Notes under the pieces: generated by a model | The model's input: only the letters and a program-made list of their open reading frames with translations | What the model was told of the DNA's origin: nothing | Database searches by the model: none | Shown here: piece by piece, positions 18,801 through 64,000 of the stretch | Position numbering within the stretch: the first letter of the stretch is position 1 | Layout of the letters: each line of letters starts with the position of its first letter | Position numbers and translations under genes: made by a program | From: Marsupella aquatica | Taxonomy: Eukaryota > Plantae > Marchantiophyta | DNA: 64,000 nt | Direction of reading: 5' to 3' | Assembly: GCA_973895155.1 (NCBI GenBank) | Contig: OZ316891.1 | Span: 31,317,112-31,381,111, forward strand

Positions 18801-19200
18801 TTATTACCAGTCTGATTCTCAACTTGGGCTTTCCACTCCTTAAAAGTGGCAAAAACATCAGACTTACTGTGTAGAAAGTATATCCACACATACCTTGAGT
18901 AATCGTCTATGGACGTGACATAGTATAACTGTCCAGAATGTGAGGGAGTAGGGGCTGGACCCCACACATCACTATGTACATACTCAAGTACCTCCTTGCT
19001 GGTGTGAGTTCCAACTCCGAAGGGTTTCCTGTGCTGCTTCCCAAGCACACAGTTCTCACAAAATTCCAAATTACAAGTTTGCAAATTAGAAAGTAATCAT
19101 TTCTTCTGAAGAATAACCAAACCTTTTTCACTCATGTGGCCCAAACGGAAGTGCCACAGCCGGGCCGTCTCCTCATGAGATAAGTTTACATTGGCTTCAT
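15878..19200 (-). pseudogene. copia pol: GAG-pre-integrase, integrase, RT, RNase H (stops, frameshifts, 504-bp insert)
   Basis: LWHFRLGHMSEKG; EFCENCVLGKQHR; LEYVHSDVWGP; YKARLVAKGFTQ; QMDVVTAFL; SLYGLKQS; YVDDML; EFRMKDLG; KHIDIRYHFIR; NPADAFTK. Confidence 0.95.
16811..17314. mobile_element. Unclassified ~504-bp insertion in the copia RT
   Basis: Removing it restores [32 protein letters not shown] in frame; no TG...CA ends, no clean TSD; boundaries uncertain by ~3 bp. Confidence 0.8.
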
Positions 19201-22200: not shown

Positions 22201-23674
22201 ATCTCCGAATGTGTGCCTCACTAAACTCTGGTTGATCCAGCATCCATGCATCCAGAAATCCAATCCCCAATCACCAAATCTCGTCACCCATAGCAATGTC
22301 AATTCCCTGGCCCGAAACGGCCCCCGTATCCCGATCAATCAATGACCCAATCTCAATTTCCCAGACATAATTCACTGCAGCCACCGTTAATGCTCGGAGA
22401 CAGTGAGTCCCCCAATTCAATGTTGAGCTAGAGAGAAAGGGAAAAAAATTGGAGAACCAGGAACCAGGGTACTGTTTACAGAGAAGCAGTTTTGAGGGAA
22501 GCTTTCGGCATCTCAAGGGAAGCAAGAAAAAAGTTAAGGGGGAAGCAAGAAGTGGTGGCCTTCCTAAGGGCGCAGGGTCCCCCTTAAGTATACCCCTGAG
22601 CGCCAGGTGCCGTCCGCTGCCCTCTCCCGGTTATTGACTCACCCGAGTATCGGGGAGTATTTTCTCCCCCCTTCTGCCGCTCGCGTACCTGCCCCCCTCT
22701 CACCTGCCCCCCGAAGCATCCCGGCTGCGCTTAAATGGGGGATTTAATTCTCCCCCCACTACTCGCGGGAGTGCCTCGCGCCTCCCTTCTCGCGGGAGCT
22801 CCTTGCGCCTCCCTGACGGGGCATACTCGCGGTGGCCTTCCCCCCATGGGGTTTGAAACCCCCCTTCTCTTTCTTCACCCTCCTGTGCCTCGCGGTGGCC
22901 TTCCAGTCCTTCGAGGCCGGGGAAATTTAATCCCCCCTACTCACAGCCCCTCATGCGGGCTCTTCCCACGGGAGCTTAATTGCCCCCCCAATTCATGATC
23001 TTCTCCTCCCGGCGCCGGCTGCGCTGTGCCTCGGCTCGCCCCGCTTTCTCCCCCTCGCCGCTGCGTCTACTTGCGGCTGTGGCTGGTGGGCTTGCGGCCC
23101 TATGCAGGGCTCGCTCCCCTCCCTTCGTTCACTTGCAGGCCCCAGATGCAAGCGGCCCTATGCAGGGCGCGCCCGGTCCTGCTCCCTCCTCGCGGGAGGG
23201 TTTAATACCCCCCTCCCTTCTTCACTCACCCGTCCTTTGGGCCCGGCTCACGGGAGCTCCTGGCTTGCGGCACCCTCGCTCGTGCGGCGCGCCTCCCTAT
23301 GCAAGGGCTAGGTTTCCCCGAGCGCCACCTGGTCACTCGCAGGGCTCCCTAATGGGGAATTTTAATCCCCCCAAAGCTCCCTTTTATTCCTCAAATTACA
23401 AGGGGGTCGCAACAATAGCTCAAGCAAACGATAATTCCTATGGGGTTGGCCCTCTAGCTTTTTAAGGTCCCAAAATATTTGCCTGCTTAGGTCGCCACAA
23501 ATCTTAGAACTATTATGAGAGAAAGAATATAAAGTCACCCGGGGCATCATCAACCTACAATGGCGGAAATAACTAAAAAAAAATTAAAAATGGCTTATTT
23601 ACAGTGGCTATTAACAAGGCACACCCCTCTGCAACCCATTATTTGTGATTTCGAGTGACGGGGACCCCGTCACA
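19201..23674 (-). mobile_element. 4474-bp nested insertion, putative giant solo LTR carrying an ORF
   Basis: Termini TGTCAC...GTCACA; perfect TSD TTCAT (19196-19200 / 23675-23679); removal restores LYVLEGSVVCDE-ANVNLSHEETARLWHFRLGH; no internal terminal direct repeat and no gag/pol seen. Confidence 0.85.
20465..22270 (-). CDS. ~600-aa TE accessory protein: globular N-half, acidic linker, C-terminal coiled coil
   Basis: 601 open codons; first ATG at 22243 (592 aa); upstream ATG at 22291 separated by a single in-frame TGA (22271-22273); K/E/A/L heptad-rich C-terminus. Confidence 0.75.
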   Translation of the reverse strand: MGIGFLDAWMLDQPEFSEAHIRRYKAAYRDYVETLIAREREERDATMRIGPAASPAPVMRKVFRRIYPKTSAKVMEDCRNIFLATGLMEFMKVEITIPSGKSWNIGAGMELRTEGIYFECLRRVVPHVELAKLLFLENQQFSFTPRNIRGELTLTMVASWVINPTSTTSIPLSAVKDVEHKGFLAKVHQRVLGNVQSGVVNGEHFVVAMDIKNYPAHVYGWWYYGLKKLLDANLGSVKPGGAVHLMRSFLLARAEGWIVSPGQEDTGSSLTTEIRSIATTIFGRLTEGSSLAVGDDNREEENQDEDSTLEWLESLVGNPEEPLVYDIPDVYLAELREFREGVHEGLKLVHALRDSLKQATARVETLEQSALSMKEVIKAKEEAIHEKVKLLQAAHLEISNLKGALSSKAKEAKEVGVLKQALAKEKQNSGEMVELRAHVGALRSQLVIFETRAKRSEALSLGKRKSPCTLSSTLSPDLISRAIEMVVKEVSGKYGPLLDAAKKSQDAAKKSQEKSKSLEKKLREVRKSLREAQVNTETPGMPPRSVTPGTPMATGQVLSLELRSGEEAALWKDTIGEGYIKAWQALANLRSRGTLAQGVPR

Positions 23675-25130
23675 TTCATCACAGACTACACTGCCCTCCA
23701 AAACGTATAGATTGCTATGTCTCTTTCCCTTCAATACAAGTTTAGTACCAGTTGAAACCTGAAGGACACCATTAGCAGAGCTCCACTGATGGCCATTTGC
23801 TTCTAAAACTCCAAGTGAAATGAGATTTTTTATCATGCTGGGAATATGTCTCACATTCCTCAATGTTCTCACAGCACCATCAAACATCTTAAATCTTACA
23901 GATCCAAGTCCAACAACTTGACATGGGATTCCATTTCCCATCAACACTGACCCATTGGAAACCGTGTAAGAACTAAAACAATCTCTCCTAGAGTAAATGT
24001 GAAAAGTATATGCACTATCTAGAATCCAGTCATCACTACCTGGATTTGATATTACGTTGAGAGCATAACCTTGACATCACAATATGTCATCATCATCGAG
24101 TAAATCTACCTCATGCGAGCTCGATGCCGCATTAGCAGAGGCAGTAGGGACCTTTACTCAACAATCCCTTTTCATGTGGCCAGGCTTGCCACAATTCCAA
24201 CATGCAAGAGACTTCCTCTCTTGCGATTTCCCTCTGGATTTAGATCTCCCCCGTGATGTAGATCTAAACCTGTTCTGCCCATTCGTGCGCTACACTGCTC
24301 TTCCCCTGTTCACATTGAGCGCAGTGCCAAAAGAAGATGCTGTCTGTGATTGACCCAGCTTCTTCTGAGCATCATCAGACAGTAAAGAGCTCACCACCTC
24401 ATTATACGAAATGGACTTCAAATCTCTGTACAAGAGCACCTGTTTCAAGCCCTGATATGACGGCGATAAGGAGCTCAGCAAAAGCAAGGCCTTATCCTCA
24501 TCTTCAACTCCTTTTCCCAGGTTTGACAGATCCACTGCTAGACTATCAAACTCATCCAGGTGATCCTGCATCTTGCTCCCTTCCTTGAGCCTGAGGCTCA
24601 TCAAGAGAGACTTCTTGTATAGCCGGTCTGACGCATCTTCCCGGTAGTACTTCTCTTGTAGAGCCTTGAATAGTGACGTGCAATCCGCATAATCATCCAG
24701 CTGCTTGATGATGTGCGGCTTGAGATATAGCATCATTGCATTGACAGCAATCACCTGCTCCTGTCTCCATTATCTCACAGAAATCTCCTCCTCTCCATCA
24801 TACTACTCTCGCGATGAAAGCAAATGAGCTAAGCCCATTGCACGAAGAACACCCTTCACTTGCTTCTCCCACAACAGGTAATCAGTACGACCATCGTACT
24901 TTTTCCACCTCAAACTTCACTCCTCCGAATCTAGCCATCTCTCTCTTCCCAACTACCAACAGCTCTGGTAGTAGAACAGCTTCCTCCACTGCATGTCGCA
25001 CTGGTGATCGTACCGGTGAAACCTGTTCCTCCTCAAAGGGTAGCAGCTCCTCCTCAGACTCTCCGTCTGACCGTCGTGAACCTGAAGCTTCACCGACTCC
25101 AATTCTCCCAGTCTCCTCCGAGTCACTCAT
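23675..25130 (-). pseudogene. copia gag, zinc knuckle and protease (frameshifts and stops)
   Basis: KFEVEK/YDGRTDYLLW; DEDKALLLLSSL; CWNCGKPGHMKRDC; WILDSAYTFHI; TLRNVRHIPSMIKNLISLG. Confidence 0.93.
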
Positions 25131-40370: not shown

Positions 40371-41659
40371 TCAGGCGCGACCAATGGCGAGGGGAGACAA
40401 AAAAGGAAAGGGAGAACCAACGCTTGAAAAAGCAGACAGACTGATAACATCGAAGCGTTTCAGCTGAGCCTAGTATGAGTGGACAGAAGTAAGGAGAGGC
40501 TACGATCCTCCCCACGAAGATCAGGCACAGAAACAACTATGGCGGTGCAGCACTAGCGTTTACCCCTCTCGTTGCGCTCTCTCCGGCTCTCCGGCTCTAT
40601 CTATCTCACTCCTCCTCTTCTTTGGAAGCGCTAGATTCGTTCCCCACTACAGTAGGTAAAGCGCCTAGTAATCCCAACCACCTCCTTTACACGAACGAAG
40701 AAGATATTAGACTCACGGTGGAATGTGATTTTTTTCGCTGGGCTGAGGTTTAGCGTACATATAGAGTAGCGAGAGAATCAGCCGCGCGACGAGGCTTTGC
40801 ATTCGGGCAAGTAGAGCGCAGAGGAGCTACCCCTGTTCTCATTTCGTTGGAGCTGGTGTCGTGAGACGGCCCGATTCAGGTACTCTCGTTGGTGCTGATC
40901 CTGGATCCTGGATCCGTTGGTCCGAGGCAAAAGGCTGCAACCCAGGTGTGGAGTTCTATCGGAGGCCATAGCGAGTGTTGTTTGAGAGATTCGAGTAGTG
41001 TCCGGTGCCGCTCACCCAATTTTTCCATTTCGGCTGGGTTTCCGGTGTTCGTGACTACTGGAGTAGAAGTGGTCATACGAGAAAAGCTTTTCTGTGGTCT
41101 GAGTGACCATAATGCTTGATCTAGAATGTATGGTGTTGTCATGTGTTGGAGTGTATGGGTTTCCAACATGAAGGTATCTCTCTTGCTACCTGTCGGCAAT
41201 CTGTGTTGGGCCATGCGTGCTTAGAATTTGGCTGTCCGAGTGATTTTTGTAAGACTGAATTGTGTCCTTGATATAGAAACTATGACACGCCTTGGAAGCC
41301 TCAGAGGTAGAACTCAGGTCCTTTGAATTTCTCCCGAGATTGTGGTGGAGGCGTCCACGTATAATGAGGATTGCTTCACTTGAGTGTTGACGGGATAAAA
41401 GTCAATTCCGTGGTGTCACACATGCTAGATTAGTCCCGGCACAATAAGCATGGCATCCTCTGTTTCCCTGTGTCACACGGTATTTGTCACGGAAGTAAGG
41501 AAGGAACAATTTTTCTTCTAGAGGCCTCATTAGCTCGGGAATATCCAGTTTGTTGTGAGGAGGCACGAATGGCGGCTAGATTATAACGAAGAAAACTTCT
41601 CAAAGCGCGGAGTCGGGCGCGTGGGGGCTCGAAGGGCAGCAGCAATTCAGAGTGCGCCC

Positions 41660-44600
41660 ATGGATGCGGGCCGATTGCAAGGCTTGGCAGTTGCGCGCTC
41701 TTGTAACCTGTCGTGCTCCTCCTCCAACCATGAACAACAATTGTTTCAGGTTGTTCCGTCTGCAGGCAGGCTAAAGTCCGCGCTCACTCCCGGCCTTGCA
41801 TTCTATCACCACCATGGTGGATGTCCGGGAAAGCATAGGGGAAGGAAGACCACTGTTATCAGAGCTGCCATTCCTCATGATTTGGCAGCAGTGGCAGTCG
41901 CTGCTGCCACGGTGCTGCCAATGTGCTGGATATATATCAACAGGTCGCAATTTTCCACAAGCTCAGCCTCCGGTTCAGTTCCATCGGCAGGCACTTCCTT
42001 TCCTGCCATAGCTCATGAGAAAAAGTCTTCAACAGCTGCTGGAGGTGCTGCTGCCTCTACAATGAACGCTTCTACGGCAGCAACGATAGCAGAGATTAGC
42101 CCTTCCTCCTCCACTGTACAATATTCGAATGGAGCAGCCAACGAAGGGGAACCCAGTCATCCTGCAGAACCAGCGTATCCCGAGGTAAGAGTTTTCGTGG
42201 AGTATTTTTTAAGTAACGGAATTCACTTGAATTACTGCCGGCTACATCTTAGCTCTGCTCGTTAATCCTATAAAGCAGGCGTCAACTGTATGATCACATG
42301 TCTATCCACTGACCTAAGCTCAGGATACAAATTGTTCCCGATCTTTGCGCGAAGATGATGTTGATTTGAAAGGGATCGTGGCCGTTGTGTTACAGCCATG
42401 CGCAACGAGATTCTTCTATTGGCACTCAAGACATTGACAATTGTTAATTTTCCCTCGTGTACATTTACAGATTTCTTGAAAGAAAACAATTAAGATTTCT
42501 TGACAGAAAACAATTTTCCCTCGTGTTAAACTGAAGTCGCGTTGGGTTCGGGCAAGCCGCAGAATCTGAACAAAAGATTAACTACTGTTAATTACTTTTG
42601 TAGCTTACAGGTCTTTTCCACCAAGGTTGGAATTCGCATCTGAGTTTGAATGCTCACGACGAGCTAGACATCAACGAACATCGTTCAAATTCAGGATCTC
42701 AGGCATCGACTCCAGAGACTACTCCTGGGAAGGTTAATGGGCACAGAATTGAGGGTGCGCATACGACTCCAGCTGGGGTAGATACCGCAGGATTGGAAAA
42801 TCTTTTACCGAGGTGTAGAGATGAGTTCGTCTCGACTGACATTACTAAGACACTGGGCAATGCACATCACCCATTCAATTCAAATTCGACGTTTGGCACA
42901 TCGGTGAATGGATCACCGTTCACTTTGATACCGGAGCTGGAGGATGCTTCAGCAGCGAAGGATAATGCCAACGTAATGAATGAGACTATCCCTAATGGTG
43001 CTCTGAATGGATCTTCAAAATCCAGGCCGGAAGCTCTCGGGGAGTCCATCGCAACGTTGATTTTGGATGAGAGAGTAGAAGAGAGTCAAGTCACAGAAGA
43101 TGAAGAGCGAGCCGATTTACTCATGGATGAAAATCACAGGAAAAATACGGCACACTGTGTAAAAATTAACGGCAGTGGAAAGCCATCTCCTGTTGAGGAT
43201 CATAGCAAAATTGAAGAAAAGAGAGCAGAGCTAGCAAAAATCATTAGTAATCTTAGTCTCAAACTAGAAGATTATCCCGGGAAAGTGAATGGCCGAAGGC
43301 AATCGGAATCCCTGCTGGCCCCAGCGGAGATATCTGCGTCCGAAAATAAATTGTCGACGAAATTGAAGAAAGAGAAACGGATGTATCCGAGATGCCCGCA
43401 GAGCCTAGCTGACATTCTTCCATTGAAGGTGTCTGCGGGTTCAGAGTTTTACCTTAAGATTTATGAGAAAATGCTCCGAGCCGGACGGTACGATCAGCTA
43501 TTCAATGCACACGCTGTTAGGATATTTGCGTTCGTCATGTCGTTCACGATTTTCGTTCAATAGAGCCTGTTTTACCTGCTTCAAAGTATCAGCATTGTTC
43601 ACTGCTTTTCTGCACTGCCCACTAAAAGATTGTCAACTCAAATTGTGGACCTCAAATCACACATTATAGTATCAGCGGCGTTTCTTATGCAGCGTAATTG
43701 CTTTGCACCTCTTCGCAGGGTCCCGGACTCCATTGTACTGCTGGAAGAAATGGAGAAGTTGAAGATTTTCGATTCGGACAAGGTGAGTTCTGGTTAGTTC
43801 ACACTATGTGGAGTGAGCTGGTAGTGATTAGTCGTTCTCAGCGTGTCTAACATTGTTACCTGGCTTGTCGGTCTGTAGATTTACCACTCAAAATTCTTCA
43901 GGGCTTGCCAAAGGCAACTAGCCGTCAGGGAGGCGTTCAGGTTCATGCGGTTGCTGAGTAGACCAACTCTGAGCTCATACAACATGCTTCTCTGTGTTTG
44001 TCGTGATGCACGAGACGTCGATGGTAGGTGTACTGGTTTGTTGTGCTCAGTAGGTAACCTTGCTATTTAACTTTGCGATGTAATGCAGTTGACTCTCGAT
44101 GGTATGCAGTTTCGAAAGGTAGTTAGCATAGATAATTAAGCTATATGAACTTCTTTCTATTTTTGCTCTCCCAGTTAGGCCATTTTGCATGCTTCGTCAA
44201 AATTCATGCTCTGCGATCTATTCCTAGTCATACACTATTGACAATAAAATTTCCACTCGCTGGCTTATTTCGGATAAGGCTGAGGGGCCAAGTACTGGGC
44301 TAGAATTCTGTGTCGTAGAAAGTCTTATCAACACATGGAAATCTGTCTCACATCTTTTGGCATAATCGAATTGCTAAAGATAAGCAACTAGCAAAATTAC
44401 ACCTGTAGTGGAACTGGAAAGCTCGCCTATTTTCTAAGCTTAAATAAAATGACTTCTTTTCTGCAGGAGGTTTACGAGTCCTCTCTGCAGCAGAGAATGC
44501 TGGTTTGAAACCCGATGGGATCTTGTACACTACTTTGATATCGACATGTGCAAAGGCTGGGAAAGTTGATATCGCCTTTAAGGTTTATCTTCTACAACTG

Positions 44601-47600
44601 TTTGAAGTTTCTTTGCCTTGTGAATTCTACAGGGCACACTGCCTTTCTGTAGTTTTTCTTTTTCTGCAGGGCGTGAACATGAGTTAAGCAGTTGTGATTG
44701 CACGAGTAATAAGCGATGTCATCACTTTGGCAGGTCTACCACGATATGGAGACAGCCGGACTTAAGCCTACTATTGAAACTTATGGTGCTATGATTGATG
44801 GTTGCGCCCGTGCTGGCCAAATAGCCAAAGCTTTTGGTGTGTACGGTATCATGGTCTCCAAGGTAATTTTCCGACTTTCAAGCCCCAACCTTAACTCTGG
44901 GTCGTTGTCAGCTTGGTTGTTGTTGTCTTTGGTTCTGAGACCTCTGTTTTTCCTTGTAGGTTAGGTTTTGCGGAATAGATCATTCGAATCTTCTTTGATT
45001 TTCTTCAAGACGTTGAAGTCTTTTAATTTTGGATCGTTTGATCTTCAGAAACTGAAACCAGATCATGTTATATTCAATACTCTTATCAACGCTTGTGGCC
45101 GAGCTGGAGCTATAGAACGTGCATTTGATGTGCTGTCGGACATGAGGGGAGAACCCTTCCACTTGGTTCCTAACCACGTCACCATGTGTGCCTTAATTTC
45201 TGCTTGTGCTCGAGCTGGCCAGGTAATATGTCGTTTCAGTCCGTTTGTGTTTCCCATTATATCACATACAGCTGGAGAAATTCAACTCAAAACATTCTCA
45301 AATTTTCTACAGGTGGATCAAGCTTTTGAAGTTTACAGAAACATGCGGAAATGGGGTATCAAAGGAACTCCAGAGTGCTATACGGCAGCAGTTCATGCGT
45401 GCAGCCCCACAGGAGACCTGGATCTCGCTCTTAGTGTTTTTGACGACACGAAAAGAGATGGCGTGAAGCCGGATGAGGTATGTCCTTAGGGCATACAGTT
45501 CATAGTTTTTGAAATGTTTTAGCTTTCTCGTCACCGCCTGTGTAATTCTGAAGGGTAGTTCCAAAACGATCTTCGGTACGTCCTCGTCAAAGTCTTCTTC
45601 TTACATTCGAATCTCGTTTTCACAGCTTTCTTCGCAGAAGAGGGTCTGACTTATCGTCCATGAAAACCCACAACTAACTCATAAGTAGGATCTCACTATG
45701 TTATGGTTTTATTATGTTGCAGATATTCTTCAGTGCTTTGATAGACGTTGCAGGACATTCCCAGCAGGTTGATGCTGCCTTCAGCATCATGGACGAGATG
45801 AAGAAGATTTCGGTGATACCTGGCGGAGTCACGTTCAGTGCCTTGATGGGCGTTTGTTGCAATGTATGTCCGAACATGAGCCTGAGAATGAAGTTAAAGC
45901 GGATAACACTGGCTCCGTCCAATTAAACGTGGCACACCTGCATTCCACTTGTTACGAAGAATTCAAGTGCTTTCATTGGGTGCAGCTGTTGCAATTTCTT
46001 TAGGATCCAAAATTTGTTAAGTTCCAGCTGATTGCCAACGGCACTGAGGCTGGATCCTCACTTTTGGGTGGAACTAAGCTTGTATCTCTGTAAACATGGG
46101 CATTCGACGGCGTATACTTTCCCCAGAAGCACCCACCCTGAGCGATTACGTGACGGTTATGCTGTTATTGAACTTTGCAGACAGGAAAGTGGGAACGAGG
46201 TCTGGAGCTCTACAGGAATATCACAGCAGCAAACTTTCGACCCACTGTTTCGACGTTCAATGCGCTCATCACAGCTTTATGTATGGCTCCCGAACTTTGC
46301 CAATCCTTTTTGCCTGCTTCTTTTGAGCTGATTTCTTATTTTGCAATGTGGGAAGTGTTGGCTGCTAAAAGGAGCTGCTTCCAAATCTGCAGGTGATGCT
46401 AAGGAAATCGAGCAATCATTCTCAATCTTCCAGGAAATGAAGGAGGCAGGAGTCCAGCCCGACCAAATTACTTACAGCATTCTTCTGGATGCATGTGAAA
46501 AGTAAGTTCCAATAATTGAGGAATGAACTTCACAGAGGACTGATGAAAGGCAGAGCAGATGGACGATGACTTTCGAGAGTAGGCTTTATACCGAAAGTCA
46601 TGGCTAGATATGCTCACTATCTCCTTCGCCTGCAGACAAGATGAGCCAGAGAGGGCATTTGACCTCTACACGAGCGGAAGGGCTGAAGGCGTCGTCCCCA
46701 ACGAGGCCATGTGCGCCAGCGTGATCGGTGTGTAGACTAAACCATATCGAGGTGTCACTATTGTAATTGGACGTTCTATACTCACATTGTGCCTGTCGGT
46801 GTGACCACCTTTCCGTTCATGCCGTGAGAGACTTCGGTCCTTTGTCTCTCAGAGTAACTGCGTTTTCTCCCTGTTGTGCATCTGCAAAATGTATTAATGA
46901 CGGGAATTTGGATTACATTGTCTGTGATATTCTGGATTTGACTGTAAATTTCGAACGTAATGCAGCGATATGTTACGCAAGAATAAAGAAGAAGCACCGT
47001 TTGACGAGCTATCCAAGCTCTATAGGACTTTTGGCTGGACAAACTAACGATGCACCTTACGAGCAGTGGTAATGTTTCTAGCCCTTTCATAACCTGGTTG
47101 TTGGTCGGACGTTGTGTGTAATTATACGTAGCCCATCCGATAGCCTGTAATTGACCTTATCTAAGAGCTCAATTCATCATAATGGAGAAAGAGAAGAACG
47201 ACTAAAATGAATGCTAATGGGAAGCGTAACAAATCTTAATACGTCAAAAAGTCCAACCCTGTCAGACAGTCCCGCCGGGAAAGAAAAAAAATATTTATTT
47301 TTTGTTTTCGTCCAGGGGAAAAGTCATCTAAGTAGTAAGCAACTACGTTTTGTGCTTAACCTTCATGCAATTGAATAGGTATGATTTGCTGCTGGATTTC
47401 AGTGGTAGATATTTTGTAGTTTATGAAAGTCTTGCGTTTCTTAAATGTGCAGGGCTTCTTGGGCTGTTGCCGTGTATCGGCACGCAGTTGCAGCCAATGT
47501 AGTTCCCACAATTAAATCACTGTCTCTGCTTTTGGGCTGCTTGCGCATTCCCGAACTATCGCATGAGAAGAACTATCTGTCCGACGATACATTTGCTCTT

Positions 47601-49218
47601 CCTGGCCAATTAAGGGGGTCGCGCCCCCCATCCCCATCCCCATCCGTTATGGAAGGTGCAGGGTTTTATGATCCTCGTGCACAAGCGTTGTTCCAGGAAG
47701 CTGCTTCTATGGGTGTCGTCCCGTCCATCAATTACACTGCTGGACCGATCACTGTGAACGCGCAGTCCATGCCAAGCTATGTTGCCGAGGTGATCTCTCG
47801 GCTCAAGACTTCTGTGTTCTTCGATTGGCCCTTTTATTTTGCCATGGCTTTTATATGGCGCACTTTCTCTTTCTTTGATTAATCCAACAGAATTTTCTGT
47901 GCAATTGGTTTGCAGTTTTGGACCAAGCATATAGAGTGTGTACCTAAAGATGGAAATCCAATTTGCAGGTTTATCTGATATTGCTGCTGAAAGGATTAAA
48001 GCAGCGCCACATCGATGGTACGAGATCTTACTTTACCTCCTCACTAGATTCTGTTTGCCGCTCGGAAGCTTGCTGAGACGTACGACTGGTGCTGCTGGTG
48101 ATGCGTCGGGACTTAGTACAGTGTAACCGGAATATTTTGAAACTTTTGAGGTCTATGTCCTTTGAAATGCTCGAGAACGGCAGTTTATGATGGCTGTGGA
48201 GCTACGAAGTTGAGAAAAGTGAACACATATTCCCCTAAGGCTATAGCAAGTAAGATTTCTGAAATGGATAGAAGTTTCTTATTGTTGAGATTTTGCTCTC
48301 CTCTGAAGCATTCTCCACTTCATGCTCGCTCTACAGGTCAGCAGTTGTTCCCCGTGACCATCTATTTTTCCACCGAGACGAAACAAAGAGTTTCGGCGAC
48401 GACAAATAAACTTAGAGAGATAACAATCAGTGGCAGGTGAGTTAGCTCAGCTTCACTTCACAAATAGCAAATTTTCTGACAATGTGGTGGCAGACCTCCT
48501 GGAATCTTCGGTTGAGCTGTCGGGAGACGCCTTTTCAAATGATCCTAACAACAGTTTGCCGAGAATAGTCCGCCATGGCAAGCGATTCACCAAAGTTGGA
48601 ATTCAATGTATTTCCTGTGCTATTCACTGGCTTCCTTAACCAGCGGATCGCTATCACTGTGTGAGGCTTCAGTTGGGAAGGAAATGGTTTTTGGACGAGG
48701 ATTTTGGAAGCTTTATGAAGTTCGGATCAGATGTTGAAGCTAAAACTCCGGTAACGTGCGCTTTGAGAGAAGTGGGGTCTTGAGACAAAGCTGACTTGTG
48801 ATTTGATGACAGGACTGGGCAAGGAGTGGCTGCGCTGTTGAGAAGGCTGAGACTACACTTTCGTGGTCATGAGAGTTCGGGTAAATTAAAAATTGATACA
48901 GCGTCAATCAGGAATTGGCTGAAGCCCCCCGCCGCGTTCCCACCATTGCAACGACATCAAGAATTGGGGCCTTTTGGACCTCCTCATACTTTTCTAGGTC
49001 AAGGTATTGCTGAACAACAGCGTAACATTCGAATGGCTGAAGTTTTCAAGAATTCGGACGACATAGAGCGAGTCTCAGGCGTAGACATGTATAGACACAG
49101 AAGAAGGATATCACAAGGCAAATCCTGGGATCGTGGAGAAAGCAACGATTTTGATTTCACTGAGAGCGTAAACGGCTCGAGTCAACGTGCGAATAGGAGA
49201 GGTACACGGGACAAATGA
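41660..49218 (+). CDS. MRL1: Chloroplast P-class PPR protein MRL1 (maturation of rbcL 1) homologue, about 17 exons
   Basis: Transit-peptide-like exon 1; PPRs LKPDGILYTTLISTCAKAGKVD, TYGAMIDGCARAGQIAKAFGVYGIM, KPDHVIFNTLINACGRAGA, IKGTPECYTAAVHACS; C-domain YDPRAQALFQEAASMGVVP, AEVYLILLLKGLK, GRTGQGVAALLRRL, GIAEQQRNIR. Confidence 0.9.
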
Positions 49219-51575: not shown

Positions 51576-54500
51576 TCACCAATAGTCTCCGCAAGAACAA
51601 AAACCATCCTCGAAGCGGTGAAAGCGATTGGCATCCCGTACAGTGATGGATCTTCCGGCAACCTTTGAAATGAACTTGGTTGCAGTATGACAATCGCCAC
51701 AGACTCGAAGATTCTTGTAAATGCGGAGTGGTGTTCCTGGAGGCGTGCTAATGAGGCCAAATGCAATGGCTAACTTCTCGCTATGGTGTCCCAGAAGAGA
51801 TATTTTTTCTTCTTCCTCTACATCATGCAATACAAAACTTGTGTCCGGGATATACCCTATCCCCTGCATTTGTGTCGACAGTCTCCTTAGCTCTGCATGA
51901 ATTTCTGTCAACCGAGGATGGTTTTGGTCATCTACCCTAAATGAATGTACCTCATTATTGACCTCAATCCAAGTGCGCCCAGGTTGTTTCTCCACACCCA
52001 TTTCTGTTCTGAGTCTTTGGATGTTTGCCCGGCTATCCCACATTCCGGCAGCAGCATAGATGTTTGACAATAGCACATAGCCAGCGGAGTTCTCAGGGTG
52101 ATATTCCAGAATTTGTTTGGCGATGCTTACTCCCAGATCCAAATTGCCATGAACCCTACATGCACCAAGCAAGGACATCCACACAGTTGCATCTGGTTCA
52201 AAGGGCATTGCCTCAACAAGATCTTCTGCTTCCTGGAGACGGCCAGCACGGCCCAGAAGGTCCACCATGCAGGCATAATGCTTGAGCGAAGGGGAAATAC
52301 CATAAACCGGGCCCATACTTCGAAAGTAGTACAAGCCTTCATCCACCAAACCTGCATGACTGCAGGCTGAAAGAAGAGAAACAAAAGTGACCATGTCCAC
52401 CTCCACCCTTTCGGCAACCATCTGTTCAAAATGTCCAATGGCTTCCTTTGCATGTCCATGCAAGGCATATCCTCCTAGCATGGCATTCCAAGCAACATTA
52501 TTGGTTGTGGATAGCTTGCCAAACACTCGCCTCGCATCCTCTATGCTGCCACATTTGGCATACATATCCACAAGGCTAGTGTTGATAAAGACAAAGACAT
52601 CTGCATCCATTCCTCTGTCGATAATACGTTGGTGAACACGTCTGCCTTCTTCAATTGCACACACGCTTGCACATGCATTGAGTATCCCCACAAAGCTGAA
52701 AGCATCCGGTTCTACACCTTCCTGTTCCATCTGACGAGATAGGTCTAATGCCTTTTGTCCTTCCCCACACTTCACATATCCCAGAATAATGGCATTCCAC
52801 CCAATGACATCATGAGTTTCCATCCTGTTAAACACTGTCCAAGCATCCTCTACACTCCCGCATTTCGTATACAAATCAACCAGGCTATTACCTACATATA
52901 TATTTGATTCACACCCTCGACGAATAACTTCTCCATGAACGTTCCTGCCTTCTTCAAGTACCCCTACACTTGCACACGCATTGATTACCGCAACAAAGGT
53001 GGTAGGGACGGGTTCCACTCCTTTGTGCTGCATTTGACGATAGAACTCCAATGCCTTTTGCCCTTGCCCACACTTCACACATCCAGAGATGATGCTATTC
53101 CAGGCAACAACATTGTGACTGGACATTGAGTTAAACACTCCACAAGCATCCTCTAGACTCCCACACTTTGCATACATGTCGATCAGGCTGCAAGACACGA
53201 AGATATCAGATTCGCAACCACTTTCAATGATCTGTTCATGAACACGCCTGCCTTCTTCGAGTGCTCTAGTGCTGGCACATGCATTTAGCATCGCGACAAA
53301 AGTGACGGGAACGGGTTCCACCCCTTCTAGTTGCATTTGACGAGAAAGTTCCAATGCTTTCTGTCCTTGACCACATTTCACATATCCTGAAATCACGGCA
53401 TTCCATCCTACCACGTCACGCTTAGGTAACCTGCTGAACACCATCCGGCTTTCCTCTATGCTCCCACATTTCGCATACATGTCCACTAAGCTATTGCCGA
53501 CGTAGACATGAGAATCATAACCTCGTTGAATGATGCGTTCATGGACACGTCTACCTTCTTCAAGTGCCCGGGCACTCGCACATGCCTTCAATACCCCTAC
53601 AAAGGTAACAGAGACTGGCTGCACCCCCTCCTCTTGCATCTGCTGATAAAGTTCCAATGCCTTCTTCCCCTGTCCACATTTCACATATCCTAGAATCATG
53701 GCATTCCAAGTTACCACATTCCGTGTTGGCATGTTGGAGAATACCTTCCACGCTTCATCTGCACTCCCGCATTTGGCATACATGTCAACCAGACTACTGG
53801 CTACAAAGATATCGTTTTCACAACCCTTTTCAATGATCTGTTTATGAATATGCTTGCCTTCTTCGAGTGCTGACACGCTTGCACATGCATTGAGAATTCC
53901 CATGAAAGTGACCGGGCTACGATCTATGCCTTCCTGTTGCATTCGGTGAGATAGTTCTAATGCCTGAAATCCTCGCCCACATTTCACATATCCCAGAATC
54001 ATTGAATTCCAGCTGACTACATCACGTGAAGGCATACTGCTGAACACTCGCCAAGCATCTTCTATGCTGCCACATTTGGCATACATGTCAATGAGACCGT
54101 TTCCCATAAGCGTGTAATACTCGAGACCTCTTTGGATGATCTGTTCATGAATACGCCTGCCTTCCTGCAGGGCCTTCACATTTGCACATGCATTCAGGGC
54201 ACCCACAAAGGTAACAGGATCTGGCTCCACTTCTTCCGCTTGCATTCGTTTAAAGAGGTCCAATGCTTTCTGCCCCTGCCCACATTTGACAGAGCCCAGA
54301 ATCATGGCGTTCCATGCCACCGCATCACGTGCAGACAGAATGTTGAACACCTCCCAAGCTCTTTCTATATCGCCACATTTGGCGTACATGTTGACAAGGC
54401 TACTACCCACATAAAGATCTGACTCCAAGCCACTTTGGATGACCTGCGCATGGATTCGTTTGCCATCTTCAAGGGCTCGTAAGCTAGCGCATGCAGTGAG

Positions 54501-56150
54501 CACTGGGACGAAAGTGAACTTGTCGATATTCATTCCCTCCTTTTCCATTTGGCGAAAGAGTTCCAATGCCTTTCTAAATTCCTTTCGTTTAACACACCTT
54601 GAAATTCTGGAATTCCAGGAAAAGAAGTTGGACTGCACAGCGCCTGGCGCCATTGCAGCCAATTCTGTTTCCACCCATGGAGGTTTGAACGTGCCATTGA
54701 GCCAGAGTGCGTCCCGTGTCTTCTTGTGTTTGAAGTCTGGATACCTTGCATTAACCTACGACCAGAAATCCAAATGTAGCTGATCACCCCTGTACTGAAC
54801 AGGTCATCACCAATGCACTTAGTTTGTGTATGAGCAAATATTTTCCACCACAATCATTTTTTTCCCCTTTCTTGCAAAAGTAATTAAGAAGTATACCTTC
54901 TCCAGTCTATAATCCCACCACTGTGAAGGATCTGCAAAAAATTCCCGCCAGAGTTTCTCGACGCTCCATTTCTGGCCTGAATGCAACAAACCCCGGAATT
55001 TCAAAATTCATACGCGTAAAGAAAACATCCAATGTGGGAAGGTGCACAGGTTAGGAATAGGAATTCTGGTATCCAATTTTGGCTTCTATTTGTAGTCTTG
55101 GGTTTTCTGGTTTCCACTTTTGCGATAACGGTTAAATTGCGGGATATCAGAAACCCGATGCGGGAGGGCGCAAAACTTCGGAGCCAATTTTCAGCCCTTA
55201 CTTTTCTCCATTTCTATACGTCTTGGATTTCCCTAGTTTCAGTTTTCAGATTGACTTAATAATTGAGACGTGATTTCCAACCCATGTGGGCGCTGTCAGT
55301 CTCAACCAAAGTTACTTCCATAATGGGTCATTCCCGAAAGATGGGGAAGCTTTCGATCCACTTTAAAAGTCTCTATTCAATCAGTTCCAAACCCTAAACC
55401 CTGAACCCTGAACCCTGAACCCCGAAGCTCTCCATAAACCCAGGTTGACACAAGGATTCAAACAGAGTCTCAAGAGTTGCTGGCTCTGAAACACCAGACC
55501 TGATGGAGCTCGCGGAAATTCTCCTTCTCTAGAGGTGAGGGCGCTGTAGTGGCACCACCCACCAGACCCTGCAACACCCAGTTAACATTTGAGAGCAACT
55601 CTACTGACTTGAATAAAGATTCGCCAAACCAGAAGTAAAACTTTCCAAGAGACTTCCGGTAGCAATTGATGGCAATTTCCCCGAAAAAAATTCTCGCATT
55701 GCATTCAATTACTCAGGATAGGAATTCATAGATGGTATTACCTACAATTCGAAAAAATGAGTACCATCTTGGGATTTAGAAAAAAGTGGTCAACTCAATT
55801 GCATTTCAATCATCACAGTGTTAAAAGGATGGTTCTCCACTAAGGATTGCTTTCTTGCGCGTCATTCGCAGGGAACTCAGTGCTGCTCACACGAAATTCT
55901 GCCAAATTAAATTACCCTGGAAGAACCATGAACATTGTAATTATCGAATACAAGCAAGAACCGGGAGCCAAAGCTTCCCATCCGTCACCTGAATGCAAAT
56001 CCCCGGCATACGAGACTAAAGGGCGAAGGGTTTGTAAAGTCTAGAAAATCGTAAGAGAAAAGAATGGATTCCTTAGGACTAACCGAAGAACGGCCGTAAC
56101 AGCCGTGTTGATGCAGTGGACTTCATGTGCTCTACTCCTCGCATTGCCAT
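51576..56150 (-). CDS. PLS-class PPR protein with E1-E2-DYW deaminase and N-terminal OSB-type PDF motif (exons 56150-56084, 55568-55500, 54976-54897, 54755-51576; 1131 aa)
   Basis: 7 P-L-S triplets + P2-L2-S2; PG box KQPGRTWIEV, HSEKLA, CGDCH, CSCGDYW; upstream exons splice GT-AG in phase; exons 1-2 less certain than exons 3-4. Confidence 0.93.
55389..55422. repeat. Telo-box-like repeats (AAACCCT/GAACCCT) in an intron of the DYW gene
   Basis: AAACCCTAAACCCTGAACCCTGAACCCTGAACCC. Confidence 0.7.
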
Positions 56151-56764
56151 GCTTCAATCGTCAATCCGCTGGATCTTCCTCACTGGAGCAGAGTAGAGCA
56201 TACAAAGTGGGTGCCGTGGCATTCGAACGAGCTCAGACGGTGCTCCGTTAGAGAAAAAAAAACAAGTTCGAGCTGGTCCGCTGTCAGTGTGATCCAGGAT
56301 TTATTCACGTACGATGGCTTTTCACGAAGCAATGGACACAAATTTTCTAGCAGGTCTGACATTAACTGCAGTTACCGAATTTCAGATCGACGGTCAAATA
56401 TTCCCCCAGCAGAGTCAGCCCACGACCCCCACCGCCGATCTCAACCGCGGTTACCGACCGGCGGAGGATAAGCCGAGTTGCGAGGACACATGGGGAACGA
56501 GTCCGTGAAGACGAGAACAGAACAGAACAGGACAGAACAGAACAGAGCGACAGGAGTGAAGAAGAGCTCGCTCGAGAGCTCTGAGAAATTGATGCAATGC
56601 TCGGTCCCTCGAGGCCGATTTCGACCAGTCGAAAGCAGGAGATAGAGCGCAACATCGAGAGGATTGCAATGGACCAATTTTGGCTTGTCGAAATTTAGGC
56701 GACGGGTTTTGTTGGACGAATTTCTACCCGCCTCCACACGAGGAGAGGGAGGGAGCAGGCGAGG

Positions 56765-59700
56765 ATGGGAGTCGGATCGGGAGAGTCGTCCTCGGGGTCG
56801 AGCTTGAGTGATGGAGTGGCGGGATGGCTTCCGACATTGGCCGTGGCTGGCGCAGCATTTGCAGCTGGAATTTTGGTCGCGCAGTTGCCCTTGCGTACTT
56901 CTGTTTCGAGGGCGCGGAGGAGTGCGGTGGGAATCATCCCGGCGCGGTACAAGAGTTCCAGATTCGAAGGCAAGCCGCTGGCTTTGATTCTTGGCAAGCC
57001 TATGATTCAGGTGAGTTAAAACCCTGCTAGTCCAATATCCGTTCCCGACCAATGCAGAGGTTGGACGTTCTCAGTTGGAAGGGCGAGAGAAATTGTTTTC
57101 TGTGGAGGGGCATAACAGAAATTTGACATCGGTCGGTTCACAGAAATCTTGGTAATTTTTTGAGAATCCCTGAACCCTAAACTTCCACTATAAGTTGGTT
57201 CGTCAATGTTTGGACCTATGCCGCTCTCTGAAAAGCGTTTTGCTACGTGACAGTCACTTTGAGGTCATTTTGGTGTGGTGCTATATTAAGTAAAGCTCTT
57301 ACAGCAAAATTTGCCATGGCAGTGAACTCAAAAATAGAATGAAAGCAACTCGAGCTGTGCTGCTGTCTGAACACCGTTCTGCCCCTCTCTATTTGTTTTG
57401 AGGGTATTTTGGTGTGTTGTTCCTTTCAACTCTCCAGTCGGAGAACATAAATACAGTACAATACAGCCACAAGTGCTCACACGACTTCTACCAGCGTCAT
57501 TAATATTGACGCCATAATGCATTGCAGAGAACATGGGAGCAAGTGAAATTGGCATCTGCGTTGGATGATGTGGGTGAGTATCTGTCAATTTGTACACTCC
57601 TTTGCTGAGAAGAGTGCCGTAGGTCGATCACACATTCTTAAGCGATTCAAAATTGCGATCTTGCAGGGAAGCAGCCCCGTCTTTCGTTTTTATCGTTGTT
57701 GCTTGGCGTGCTGGTTAAACCTTTTGCCTCCAACTAGAATTCCACTGCCATTGTCGACGGTTTTCAGGCTCGCACAATTTGATTGGGTCAGCCTTTTTCA
57801 AATTGGAAGTCCTGTAGTCTGATGTTGATGGTCAGCTTCATTTTCAGGCTGCGTGTTCAGTACTCAGCGAAGGGCCAAGTATGAGAACTCATACGCTCTA
57901 ATCGAATATTTGGTGTGCAATGTCAGTCGTGGCTACAGATGACAATAGGATTGCCGACTGCTGCAAGAGTTTTGGAGCACAAGTTGTTATGACATCTGAA
58001 ACTTGTTCCAACGGTGAGCTCTGCTGCACTTATCTCACTCTTCCATCCGCTGCCGATTTGAGCCCCTCTTGACGCTGTCGAACCGTCCGAATGTAGCATC
58101 AGCAGCCATGTCGCATGTAAACGTGTTTGTAGCGTGGATTTTGAGTCTCCAACTTGTTTTTGAATCTGAACCGCACAAAATGAATATTTGTCAAGGTCTT
58201 GAATACCAATCACAGCTCCAAGCCTTCTGTGCAAAGTGCCTCCAAAACGTTCTTGAATGTCAACATGAACAAGTTTATGGGCATGATATCTTGGGATCTG
58301 GGACCAGCTTTTGATCATAGTTTTTGAATCATGATGTTCTTCCCGTTATACAGACCAGTCTATGCATTGCCGACGTGCTTCTGTTTATGACTAATCTAGT
58401 GAGTTAAAGAATAGCTACTGAGCTGCTCAATGCCCGGACAGGAACTGAACGCTGTGAAGAGGCTCTGAGATTACTGAAGAAGAAGTACGACATTGTCGTG
58501 AACATACAAGGGGATGAGCCCCTGATTGATCCGGAGATAATCAATGGTGTTGTCCAAGCTTTGAGGGTAACTTACCAACGTTTTCTCGCTTCTTCATCTG
58601 TTTTGGTGACCACCAAGGATTAACGTTCAGATTCCATTGAATGACTAGGCAATTTAGTGGATTTTCTCATGTGAAGCAGCATCTCATGCTGGTGGTGGGT
58701 CAAAAGTTCTACAATATTGGTAGAAGGAATCTTCTCGTGGAAAAACCGTGCTGTGATTTTTGTAGAGTCTACATAGGTGTGTGGTTTCCTGTTCAAGCCC
58801 ATGAGTTCACTCGTTGGAATCTATTGGCTGGATTTATACAACCCATTTCGATGTAATATTTGATTGCAGAACTCTCCTGATGCCAAGTTCAGCACAGCCG
58901 TGACAGATCTGAGTCCTGAGGATGCCCATGATCCAAACCGTGTGAAGTGTGTTGTAGACCAAAAGGGCTATGCCATTTACTTTTCTAGGGGCATGATTCC
59001 CTACAACAAGTAAGATCGGCGTCTCTACAAGCAATGTGCAGATTCTTGATTTGCTTTGATCCATGCAAATATATGATTGTGCGGGGACATGTATCAAGGT
59101 TAGATAATTATATGTGGTATATGACATCGGCAGTTCTGTTGCATGTTTGGAAATCTGGACATCAGTCTTGCACTGATCAGCTAGGGTTCATATTTGTAGA
59201 CGGACTCAAACCCGTGGAGTTAACTTTATTCGTCTCGACCATCAACTGTTCAGCGTTACGTCTAATCCCCGGTTGTTGCAAGTCATCTAGGTTACCGTTT
59301 TATCGGAACGGTTTAGTAACTTGCAAACTGTAGGGAATTCTACATTCAGCGAATATTTTGGTAGCTGTTGTAGAGTTGATACTGACATCGGAAGGGTGAA
59401 CCTATTTCTGGGATGGTTTCAATGGTAATGCAGGAAAGCGATCGCTAGTCCTGATTTCCCATACTTTCTGCACCTTGGCATTCAGGTGACTATGTCTTAC
59501 TACCGGGCTGAATTTTTTAACGAAAAGTATTTTAATAAAGGGTGTAAAGGAAGCAAATTTGCTTCTGTTAATTTAAATAGGTCTTTGTGGAATTGTAAGT
59601 TGATGCGAGGGGCTACGTTTCGGTGTACATGCTCTCCCTCTTGTTTCGCATATCAATCAGTTCTGTATCAACCCTATCGTGGATCCAGTGCATCATGGTT

Positions 59701-60342: not shown

Positions 60343-62843
60343 CACCTCCAAGCTTTGTAAGGGCTTTGTTTGTTCTAGAGCTGTTGTCTCTTAGGTGAAG
60401 TGGACATTTCACGACACAGCATGTCCAACAGGACACATTCTTTTCAATTCTTTTAGCTCTCCTTCATTTCTAGGCGATTGACATAATAGCACCACAGATC
60501 ACAAATACACGCGATATGGTGTTAGCAACTGCATTCATTTCCTTGTCGGAGCCTATTATCAAGTGGCAAATGCATCAATGAGGATTTTAGCACACAGACG
60601 GAGGGCCTGCATTGGTACTTTTTGGGACATGTACCATTGTCCCTAGAATTTTGATCGGGGTCTTGCTCCTCATACTGACGAGGGTACAGACACTTCAGAT
60701 TAGAGTACAACGGCTGACAATTGGATCTAGAAGCTCATGTAAACTTGTTTAATCATGATTTGAGTAATCGATTAGTGCGTGGGGTGCAGTCTAAAGTCTA
60801 CGCAGCAGTCTAGACTGATGGACCTCGAACCATGATTTAATCACTCAGGTGACTTACTGTAAATTGATGCAGAAAGACAGACCCTAACGTGCAACTGCAG
60901 TTGTAAGGGAGCAGGTCGCTTTGAACTGATCATCAGTCCCAGTCAGTACCAAACGCTATAGCAAACGACTTGAAAACTATATTCGAACCTGATTGTGTGC
61001 ATCCTTTTGCTTATTACATCCTTGTCCAAGAAGCTGGTGGCAAGATTTTTTGTTGTGCTTCTACATGTGCTTGTCCGTAATGGGACGGAATTCATACAGG
61101 TAATGCATGGCTGTCTTCAGGCGTTCCATTGCTGTCTTCAGCTCGAGTCTTGAGACATTGGGTTAAGTTTGCGAGCGCAACCCTTTAGCTCGTGTCTAGA
61201 GACATTTCCGCGAGCAAAACCCAAATGTCAAAAAGTTCATCACTCTCCAAGGATTCATTGTAAAGGCTCTCTATGAAGCATACCCGCAAGAATGTTTTAT
61301 CTTGGTGTGGGTTTGGCGGCGTTTTGGAGCTGTCATCTTTGCCCAATCTTTTCATCTTTGCAACTGCAGTGAAACTTGGCGTTCGACCCCTTTGAAGCAC
61401 TGTTGTTCGACTTTCTTGTGCCGTTCTAAGATCCTCCTGATTTGTATCACTCGTCCTCTCCAATTCTTGCTCAAAACGTTTAATGACTTTGACCTTCATA
61501 ACAGAAGATTTTAAATATGGGGAAACCTCAACCAGTTTCTTGACTTTTGTTGCATATTGCCCATGTTTTCTTTGGTGGTTACAAATTTGAGTTCATCCCC
61601 TCAACCATTATTGGCTTCTTGTTGAGTCTCCATTGAGCAGGCAAATCTTTGATCATTCTCAAGCCTTGACTTTTCTTTTGCGGGGGCACAAAGGCGAAAA
61701 GACTAAAAGGAGGGACAACCCTCGGAGCACAAAATCTGTCAGGAGAAGGGATGGCAGAGAGGGAGTCTGCAAAAGAATGGAGGTGGGAAGATGCAAAAGA
61801 ACACTAGTTCAAAAGAGAAACAAGCCCTTTGTGAGGAAAGGAGTTGTGAAAAAGCCACCTGATTAAGGGGGACTTTACAAGAACAAGAGGACAAAAAACT
61901 GACTGGCCACTTTCAGCATTGTGCTTCTCAATTTCATCACAACAATTCATATCAAGTCACCCATCCACTCTTGCTTTACATGACATTTAGAGGTTGCTTG
62001 TACAAGAGAGTTCTTGTCATACACAAACCTCTCCAAATCCTACATAGGCTTGAATGGGTACCCCAATATGCTTAATATGGGGACAGTGTAATTTTGGCCA
62101 AAGTTTAGACCGCCACCTCTTGAGGTGGGATTTTGAAAGCACCTTCCATCTCTTCTGTCAGTAGAGTATTAAATGCATTACATGACCACCTATTTTGGTC
62201 AGGAGATAGTCTAAATGGACCTGTGGATCAGGTATGGTAAAAGACACATGCCCTCTCAATTTTTGTCCTCTCATTCTTGTAAACCCCCAACAAAGAGAGG
62301 AGCGAGGAGCTAGCACAAGATGAGACACAAGTGGTCACCCTAGCCAGCAATAGAGAAACAAAGATTGAAACAAAGGAAGACAAACTAAGATTATGTGGAA
62401 GTTTTCAGATGATTATGAAACTTGATTAACGTAAGGCACAATAGTGTGTTTAAATACATGAATGGAGTGGGGTCCAAGTGCGTGAGCAAAGGAAAATGAC
62501 AAGTAAACTCTGACCGGGAATATAAGTAGTTGAGTCAGTCTAAGTGGACGCAGCCAGATAGGACAGAAAGAGGATCAGAGTCAAACGGGATCAACCAGAC
62601 AACCTACCGACCGGCAGCAAGCTCAAGGTAGTCAGTAAGATCCGATGCAGCCAGAGTGTACAGTAACCACATCTGACAGCGAGGCATGGGAGCAGGCAAG
62701 AGACAAGACCGCGTGAGTTTCAACACCTCCCCTCAACCATGGCTCGCAAAGATTCAGGAGGAGAGTATGCTGTGATATATGGAACGTTGGTATGGTAACT
62801 GAATTTATCCAAATCAAGTTTTGTACATTGGATAGAGACCACC

Positions 62844-63326
62844 ATGGCGCAGGAGGAGATGACATTAAGGGAATCGGCGATGGCACTCGTTCTTTCCTTG
62901 TTGGGATTTATCTCAGTATTGTCGCGGAGTGTTTATGATTACCTAGTGTGTAATCATAGTGATTCATTAGGACCGGAGGAGAGACCCCTTGGTGGGCAAT
63001 CAGAAGAAACACCTATTGAGCCGCAGGCAGGTGCATCAACGGAGACTGATCGAGCTAGGGAGCTAATAGTCCCTGTAGAGCCAAGTGCTCCAATGTATAA
63101 AGAGGAGTCCCGTCACCCGTTGTCAGGAGAAATAGTGAGAGATTTCTCAGAAGAGCTGCCAAGGCGATACTATTCAGTAGCTCGAGGCCGACGTCCAGGG
63201 ATCTATACGACTTGGGAGGAGGTAGAACCCTTAGTAAGTGGCTTCCGAGGCAATAAGTACAAGTCTTTCAAGACTCGGATAGAGGCCGAGTTGTACTTAA
63301 AGAAAGAGCAGGCTAGAGCTCTCTAG
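62844..63326 (+). CDS. 160-aa antisense ORF: hydrophobic N-terminal helix plus RNase H1 N-terminal / caulimovirus viroplasmin hybrid-binding domain
   Basis: ATG to TAG intact; YYSVARGRRPGIYTTWEEVEPLVSGFRGNKYKSFKTRIEAELYL matches the FYAV.KGR..GIY.TW.EC...V.G.....YK.F....EA..FL pattern. Confidence 0.85.
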   Translation: MAQEEMTLRESAMALVLSLLGFISVLSRSVYDYLVCNHSDSLGPEERPLGGQSEETPIEPQAGASTETDRARELIVPVEPSAPMYKEESRHPLSGEIVRDFSEELPRRYYSVARGRRPGIYTTWEEVEPLVSGFRGNKYKSFKTRIEAELYLKKEQARAL

Positions 63327-63455: not shown

Positions 63456-64000
63456 CTATTTAGTGGATAATGATTTAGTCAGAATGTCGGCTACCTGGTC
63501 TTCTGTTTTCACATGATGCACTGAAAGTTCTCCCTCCAAAACTCTTTCACGTACAAAGTGATGGTGAATTTCTAAGTGCTTTGTCCTCGCGTGGAAGACT
63601 GGGTTTTTGGCGAGCTTAACAGCGCTCATGTTATCGCAAGGTCTCAAATGTAAGTCCTGAAGGGATGGCACTGCAGCTTGCTCAAGATCAGTTGCTATTC
63701 CAGTGTTTTTACATTTGACCTTGGTAGGCAAGGATGAGTTGCCAACCAGTTCTTCGAGTAATCGCTTTAGGTACACACCTTCTTGGGCGCCATCTGAAAG
63801 TGCCTTATATTTTGCCTCCGTAGTCGATCGAGACACTGTTGGATGTCTTTTGCTGCTCCATGTGATAGGACCTTCAGACAGCTTGAAGATGTATTCGCCG
63901 GTGGATCTTCGAGTATCAGGGCATGAATTTCCCCAATCAGAATCTGTGAAGCCTTCGAGATTAAGTTGACTGTCTCTGCTGTAGAACACTTGTCGTATAG
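63456..64000 (-). pseudogene. copia RNase H domain (end of pol)
   Basis: LEGFTDSDWG, RRSTG, ITWSSKR, STTEAKY, CDNMSA, NPVFHARTKHLEIHHHFVRE, DQVADILTK. Confidence 0.93.

Follow-up and report, generated by a model that had tools for sequence, protein, structure and literature searches.

A PDF motif of the OSB type ahead of the PPR repeats in a predicted DYW:PG editing factor and in a Sphagnum gene family

Results

Organization of the locus

The window (the whole stretch of DNA analysed, 64,000 nucleotides) carries on its minus strand a gene that was read from the sequence as four exons forming a single open frame of 1131 amino acids, with GT-AG ends at all introns (Table 1). The last exon (54755-51576) is open for 1059 codons from stop to stop and enters the frame in the middle of a PDF motif, and exons 1-3 add 216 nt (72 codons) on its 5' side. 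A 1032-aa open reading frame had originally been proposed as only the last exon of a longer gene; its status as the last exon holds, and its length is corrected to 1059 aa, the value of 1032 being compatible with an internal GTG start. The encoded protein consists of a 51-residue leader, the PDF motif at residues 52-104, a linker of 11 residues, a repeat array starting at residue 116, E1/E2 motifs, and a DYW domain.

Table 1. Features of the PDF-PPR-DYW gene in the window
Feature	Positions	Strand	Remarks
Exon 1, start of leader	56084..56150	-	67 nt; ATG at 56150; leader HMM 12.3 bits
Exon 2, remainder of leader	55500..55568	-	69 nt; inferred junctions
Exon 3, first half of PDF motif from 54959 (residue 52)	54897..54976	-	80 nt; 27.5 bits alone
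Phase-0 GT-AG intron within PDF motif	54756..54896	-	141 nt; common to paralogues
Second half of PDF motif, residues 73-104	54660..54755	-	40.5 bits alone
Linker from motif to first repeat	54627..54659	-	11 residues; P-G-x-x-Q pattern
PLS array, 24 motifs	52191..54626	-	7 x (P1-L1-S1) + P2-L2-S2
E1/E2 motifs	51984..52190	-	Pfam E_motif E=7.9e-14
DYW:PG deaminase domain and stop	51576..51983	-	Pfam DYW_deaminase E=4.1e-43, 93/93 positions

The leader is basic and Ser/Thr-rich (its first 50 residues contain seven R/K, three E, no D, and ten S/T) and is a predicted organelle-targeting peptide, whose match to the leaders of relatives is weak. A G-x-W-C-H stretch encoded in exon 2 resembles the leaders of Sphagnum relatives, and none of the 1944 scored shuffles reached the leader HMM score (best shuffle, 11.2 bits). 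Exon 1 is linked to the last exon by one contig of a relative, described below. The open frame and the leader score thus favor the two further in-phase exons with a presequence that had been predicted, at a lower level of support than the rest of the gene model, including the junction from 54897 to 54755.

Several other features were recorded in the surroundings. A multi-exon gene for a P-type PPR protein, which we take to resemble MRL1, occupies 41534-49218 on the plus strand and is convergent with the PDF-PPR-DYW gene. A divergent gene start at 56699-57019 (+), covered by record 7 of sequencing run X1, lies about 550 nt from the PDF-PPR-DYW gene ATG, and a bidirectional promoter common to both genes is possible. 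Telomere-like heptamers of the TTCAGGG/TTTAGGG type are located within intron 2 (55385-55421), where the depth of the DNA runs peaks. The regions 15878-24769 (-) and 63456-63998 (-), with gag, reverse transcriptase, and RNase H-like frames, are presumably remains of Copia-like retroelements; an unrelated 601-aa frame (20465-22270) lies within the former. Finally, the end of a 175-aa frame at 62799-63326 (+) presumably resembles the RNase H1 N-terminal hybrid-binding domain.

The editing core

The repeat array is composed of P1-L1-S1 triplets ending with P2-L2-S2, its 24 motifs being accompanied by Pfam PPR matches. The PG box, HSEK (51785-51774), CGDC (51701-51690), and the terminal DYW are all intact, in agreement with the deaminase site (HSEK/CxxC) described in the original prediction. 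PPR repeats run N-to-C along the RNA 5'-to-3', and in DYW:PG factors an array of 24 repeats would read approximately 24 bases (-27 to -4) upstream of a single cytidine, which the zinc deaminase would convert to uridine. The DYW:PG type is the C-to-U type, as opposed to the KP/HAE type, by the definitions in the available text of PMC9478123. By every sequence feature that can be tested, the protein is a predicted DYW:PG organelle C-to-U editor.

The same (P1-L1-S1)n-P2-L2-S2-E1-E2-DYW order, together with the PG box, HSE/CxxC, and terminal DYW, is common to the PLS DYW:PG factors, including PpPPR_45, PpPPR_56, and PpPPR_71 of Physcomitrium (family features as given in the accessible parts of PMC9478123 and PMC9459714). 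The window protein differs from them by an additional PDF motif of 53 residues, placed after the leader and ahead of the repeats.

Identity of the PDF motif

The PDF motif has also been ascribed to pTAC9, and the original account of OSB1-OSB4 is reportedly that of Zaegel et al. (2006). To characterize the motif, an HMM was built from the 34 motifs supplied by 35 angiosperm proteins that bear the name OSB. Residues 52-104 scored 74.2 bits against this OSB-only model, aligning with profile positions 2-54, and a chance match was rejected on the basis of a shuffling control, in which 1920 of 2000 shuffles received a score and the best of them reached 9.2 bits. Each exon half of the motif is also recognized by itself (Table 1), and when all six frames of the window were scanned, these two segments were the only ones to score, the next best value being 6.2 bits. 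The profile comparison therefore bears out the prediction that a PLS-E-DYW editor carries a PDF motif of the OSB type, and the location given for it (approximately residues 48-100) needs only a shift of its limits to 52-104.

A broader set of OSB motifs was obtained through a Sphagnum motif query, which led to a fern SSB+PDF protein (P0016) and from it to 355 relatives, the best 120 of which were used; 112 OSB motifs were cut by pattern from 106 of these 120 listed relatives. Eight positions (W5, P12, R19, K22, L39, W40, P47, and W49), all of them free to vary under the extraction pattern, are invariant in 112/112 OSB motifs, and all of them are kept in the window protein. The mean net charge of the fusion motifs equals that of the OSB motifs (+0.7). 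The Sphagnum fusion motifs differ from those of OSBs at N18 (Y in the window protein, C or H in most cases), R/K23, G36, and K51.

A compact helix-strands-helix fold was predicted by AlphaFold2 for the motif of the paralogue L001 from an 82-row alignment, with a pLDDT of 91.8; in a first fold of the motif with repeats, from a 28-row alignment, the pTM was 0.51 and the motif had low confidence. Pfam held no model for the PDF motif, and PHROGs gave no match to it. Among sequences of solved structures, the motif profile had no match under E=0.1, and a fern OSB retrieved SSB matches only. No significant match to the modelled fold was obtained in the PDB by Foldseek or among viral structures, and the best Z in a wide VIA-align comparison was 3.4; the absence of a structural match does not make the motif a new fold. 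Atlas searches yielded no usable match to the motif and, under 0.9, nothing beyond generic PPR clusters.

The full-length PDF motif with its invariant core is common to the window protein and the organellar ssDNA-binding proteins OSB1-OSB4 (available text of PMC6963530, PMC4166229, PMC6451138, and PMC13393729). In contrast to them, the window protein is devoid of the OB-fold/SSB domain, and its motif is single, N-terminal, and followed by PPR repeats. Neither the last exon nor exon 3 gave an SSB match, and just 51 residues precede the motif. Membership in the OSB family was thus rejected, given the lack of an OB fold and the position of the motif at 52-104 of 1131 residues rather than at the C-terminus; the motif itself is homologous.

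The splice junction inside the motif

The fusion in the window depends on an intron that interrupts the motif. In 11 of 13 intron-bearing paralogue loci, the place of the 141-nt intron of the window is taken by a phase-0 intron with GT-AG ends, 123-159 nt long; locus L057 has no valid GT-AG solution, and the best solution for L064 is different. Two pairs of contigs capture the removal of this intron: the spliced-type contig L001 matches the genomic contigs L036/L037 over eight blocks at 99-100% identity but lacks the motif intron, and the intron is likewise missing from the spliced-type contig L010 as compared with the genomic L062. The whole motif is also present in six annotated Sphagnum proteins (P0001, P0002, P0003, P0006, P0008, and P0010) among 13 close relatives and in the JGI protein P0005, while several JGI predictions start at the exon border of the motif. 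The possibility that the joined motif is an artefact of gene prediction was rejected on account of the paired spliced and genomic contigs. Upstream of the motif exon, positions 1-2040 of L001 hold about 2 kb of further sequence with six more introns, which may be a long leader or read-through from another gene.

Sequencing runs were also inspected. Run X1, which like X2 was taken by guess to be RNA, comes from a relative approximately 95% alike, and its record 6 connects 54373-54788 with 56083-56242 across 140 intervening letters; no depth was seen in two bins inside intron 1. Record 6 appears to retain about 24-33 nt of the 3' end of the motif intron. Since it extends up to 33 nt into this last intron, an upstream acceptor is suggested, and in the window the 24-nt alternative acceptor would bring an in-frame stop. 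Splicing to any of the upstream AG acceptors at 54780, 54790, and 54795 would introduce a stop or shift the frame immediately ahead of the second motif half. One of the three seems to be the acceptor of record 6, possibly in unproductive splicing. In the DNA runs X5 and X6, the 12 indels listed of 16 were all located in introns or upstream.

The proposed splicing of 54976-54897 to 54755 is thus favored by the homologues and the paralogue contigs, whereas the X1 contig of the relative appears to use an upstream acceptor. The PDF-PPR fusion is seen directly in the family, and we infer it for the window gene.

A large family in Sphagnum, with members in clubmoss and fern

Every close relative that has a name is a Sphagnum protein, and the window gene is thus of a peat-moss type. 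A metagenome scan gave at least 600 pattern matches and at least 463 relatives, the best 80 of which were kept and formed 50 groups. The family linker pattern immediately follows the motif in 69 of these 80 best loci, and one locus (L069) is a true OSB. By these sequence comparisons, the PDF-PPR fusion is a large Sphagnum gene family. Copies without introns are also found in long genomic contigs (149 kb in the case of L007), as expected of retrocopies.

A full-library search with the motif produced 1258 cluster representatives at E<=0.001. Among the best 150 examined, 11 have PPR repeats, 64 have an SSB domain, and 75 have neither by phmmer. Among the matches listed, named PPR fusions belong to Sphagnum, the clubmoss Diphasiastrum complanatum (P0228, P0231, P0280, P0288, and P0304), and the fern Adiantum capillus-veneris (P0213). 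The original prediction of a probable family is therefore upheld and extends past mosses. One of the clubmoss members, P0280, is a full PDF-PLS-E-DYW protein, which is identical to the window protein at 65% of positions in the motif, 45% in the adjoining repeats, and 68% in E/DYW. A group of 14 other matches (P0170-P0176, P0183, P0185, P0187, P0190, and P0193-P0195) contain 4-13 tandem PDF-like motifs, most without an SSB or PPR match and many with signal-peptide-like leaders, which suggests that stand-alone PDF-repeat proteins exist, perhaps (as a guess) outside green plants.

In P0228 and P0280, the linker has 11 residues and the P-G-x-x-Q pattern, as in Sphagnum and the window protein. This linker, shared between moss and clubmoss, suggests that the fusion is older than the split of mosses and vascular plants, unless it was transferred. 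In a tree of 55 motif columns, 15 Sphagnum fusion motifs group together (94/97); the alignment is too short to count the moss, clubmoss, and fern origins. The fusion is probably old and was probably spread by duplication and retroposition.

The fixed spacing of 11 residues to the first repeat in Sphagnum, P0228, and P0280 would also be expected if the motif were re-used as an N-terminal cap, or as a dimerisation or partner-binding surface, that stabilizes the long PLS array. This job is done in flowering plants by MORF proteins, which the available text of PMC9459714 describes as flowering-plant factors, and the OSB-conserved polar and basic positions that are changed in the fusions point in the same direction. 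However, in four proteins (P0181, P0213, P0231, and P0330) the linkers are long and unrelated and the motif is repeated in tandem two or three times, an arrangement that suits a module binding with avidity better than a cap, and the aromatic and basic core is retained as in OSB. We consider such a structural role doubtful.

The family is heterogeneous at its C-terminal end. A Pfam DYW match is found in only 4 of the 13 close relatives, although truncation may explain its absence in some cases; a DYW-less PLS-E member of 790 aa is conserved across S. fallax, S. jensenii, S. tenellum, and S. troendelagicum; and the clubmoss proteins P0228, P0231, and P0288 end after E. This distribution bears on the earlier suggestion that the motif brings the deaminase to organelle ssDNA, where the repeats would read DNA and the DYW domain would convert dC to dU. 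An intact active site and the preference of the OSB PDF for ssDNA agree with that suggestion, as does the binding of ssDNA by synthetic P-type PPRs through the same code (available text of PMC12733224). As a general role it is disfavored by the nine of 13 relatives that lack a Pfam DYW match, by the DYW-less member in at least four Sphagnum species, and by the 24 repeats that intervene between the motif and the active site, and none of the papers listed in the literature search dealt with a natural PPR-DYW protein acting on DNA. We regard it as very improbable; if true, seed-free plants would have editors that write C-to-T into the organelle genome and could erase their own RNA editing sites.

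Selective constraint on the motif

Substitution rates were compared in 27 loci and the window (28 sequences, 378 pairs), all with frames open over 155 codons only. The dN/dS ratio was 0.14 [0.08-0.21] in the motif vs 0.27 [0.22-0.36] in the 89 repeat codons that follow, and the pairs including the window alone also gave 0.14 for the motif; pN alone was 0.16 in the motif vs 0.19 in the repeats. Since the loci were selected through motif patterns and for open frames, the pairs are not independent, and the synonymous sites are near saturation (pS 0.61), these ratios overstate the constraint by an uncertain amount. In many of the best 80 loci, the frame after the motif is short, which is explained in some cases by contig ends and suggests that part of the family is decaying.

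Many copies being intronless or decayed, in a sample that is itself biased towards intact motifs, would be compatible with a motif carried along without a role, for instance if an ancestral PLS gene took OSB-like 5' exons for their promoter or targeting signal. Against this origin, the OSB motif is C-terminal and does not adjoin the transit peptide, the identity to the clubmoss P0280 is higher in the motif than in the adjoining repeats, and the dN/dS ratio of the motif is well below 1. A passenger motif is accordingly improbable.

Discussion

A proposed role of the motif

The PDF motif is likely (with a probability of roughly 55%) a built-in, sequence-non-specific single-strand grip that helps the PLS array to load on its target. 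This reading is favored by the OSB score, retained core, low dN/dS, and confidently predicted fold of the motif, by ssDNA binding in OSBs, and by the effect of upstream RNA on a moss editor. In AtOSB1, the PDF is sufficient for ssDNA binding (PMC6963530), OSBs prefer ssDNA to RNA (PMC4166229), and editing by the moss PPR56 is raised by RNA upstream of the PPR footprint and lowered by secondary structure (PMC10482289), as far as the available texts of these sources go. Given the N-to-C polarity of the repeats along the RNA, the motif would be located at the 5' end of the stretch that is bound, upstream of position -27, and would keep the upstream single strand open. Alternatively, it would dock the protein on exposed nucleoid ssDNA near nascent transcripts. 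Its presence on DYW-less PLS-E proteins and the low number of close relatives with DYW suggest a closer tie of the motif to the array than to the deaminase.

Of the three functions originally suggested, either a non-specific grip or a nucleoid tether would fit the conserved core residues. The changes at the four OSB-typical positions count against the grip model. Moreover, OSBs bind as tetramers with nanomolar affinity, according to the accessible part of PMC6451138, and a lone PDF motif may bind weakly. The PDF does not appear among the extra domains in the available text of the Physcomitrium PPR catalogue (PMC9459714), which suggests that moss editors may work without the motif.

Comparison with known systems

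The extra domains named for Physcomitrium PPRs in the same text are RRM, LAGLIDADG, SMR, NYN, CBS, and SAP. A combination of a repeat array with a second nucleic-acid module is likewise found in P-type PPR-RRM (PPR4), PPR-SMR, and PPR-LAGLIDADG proteins (PMC9459714, as available). Unlike these P-type splicing and processing factors, the window protein has a PLS-type array with a deaminase, and its additional module comes from DNA-maintenance proteins.

A literature search, with subscription papers largely outside its scope, found no description of a PDF-PPR fusion, functional or otherwise, which agrees with the original prediction; supplements may list such proteins. A 2026 survey of OSBs (PMC13393729), in its available text, mentions neither PPR nor Sphagnum; it required both OB and PDF domains, and PDF-PPR fusions would thus be left out. 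The window protein and its relatives are a real and apparently undescribed variant of the DYW:PG editors.

The PDF-PPR fusion brings together in one natural protein family, with members in moss, clubmoss, and fern, organelle DNA maintenance (OSB) and RNA editing (PPR-DYW), two fields that are otherwise investigated separately. The finding bears on the way in which editors locate their sites among nascent, folded transcripts and on whether editing occurs at nucleoids. As a 53-residue module that can be deleted from an otherwise standard DYW:PG factor, the motif makes both questions testable in the established E. coli editing assay, and it could serve as an efficiency module for synthetic PPR editors.
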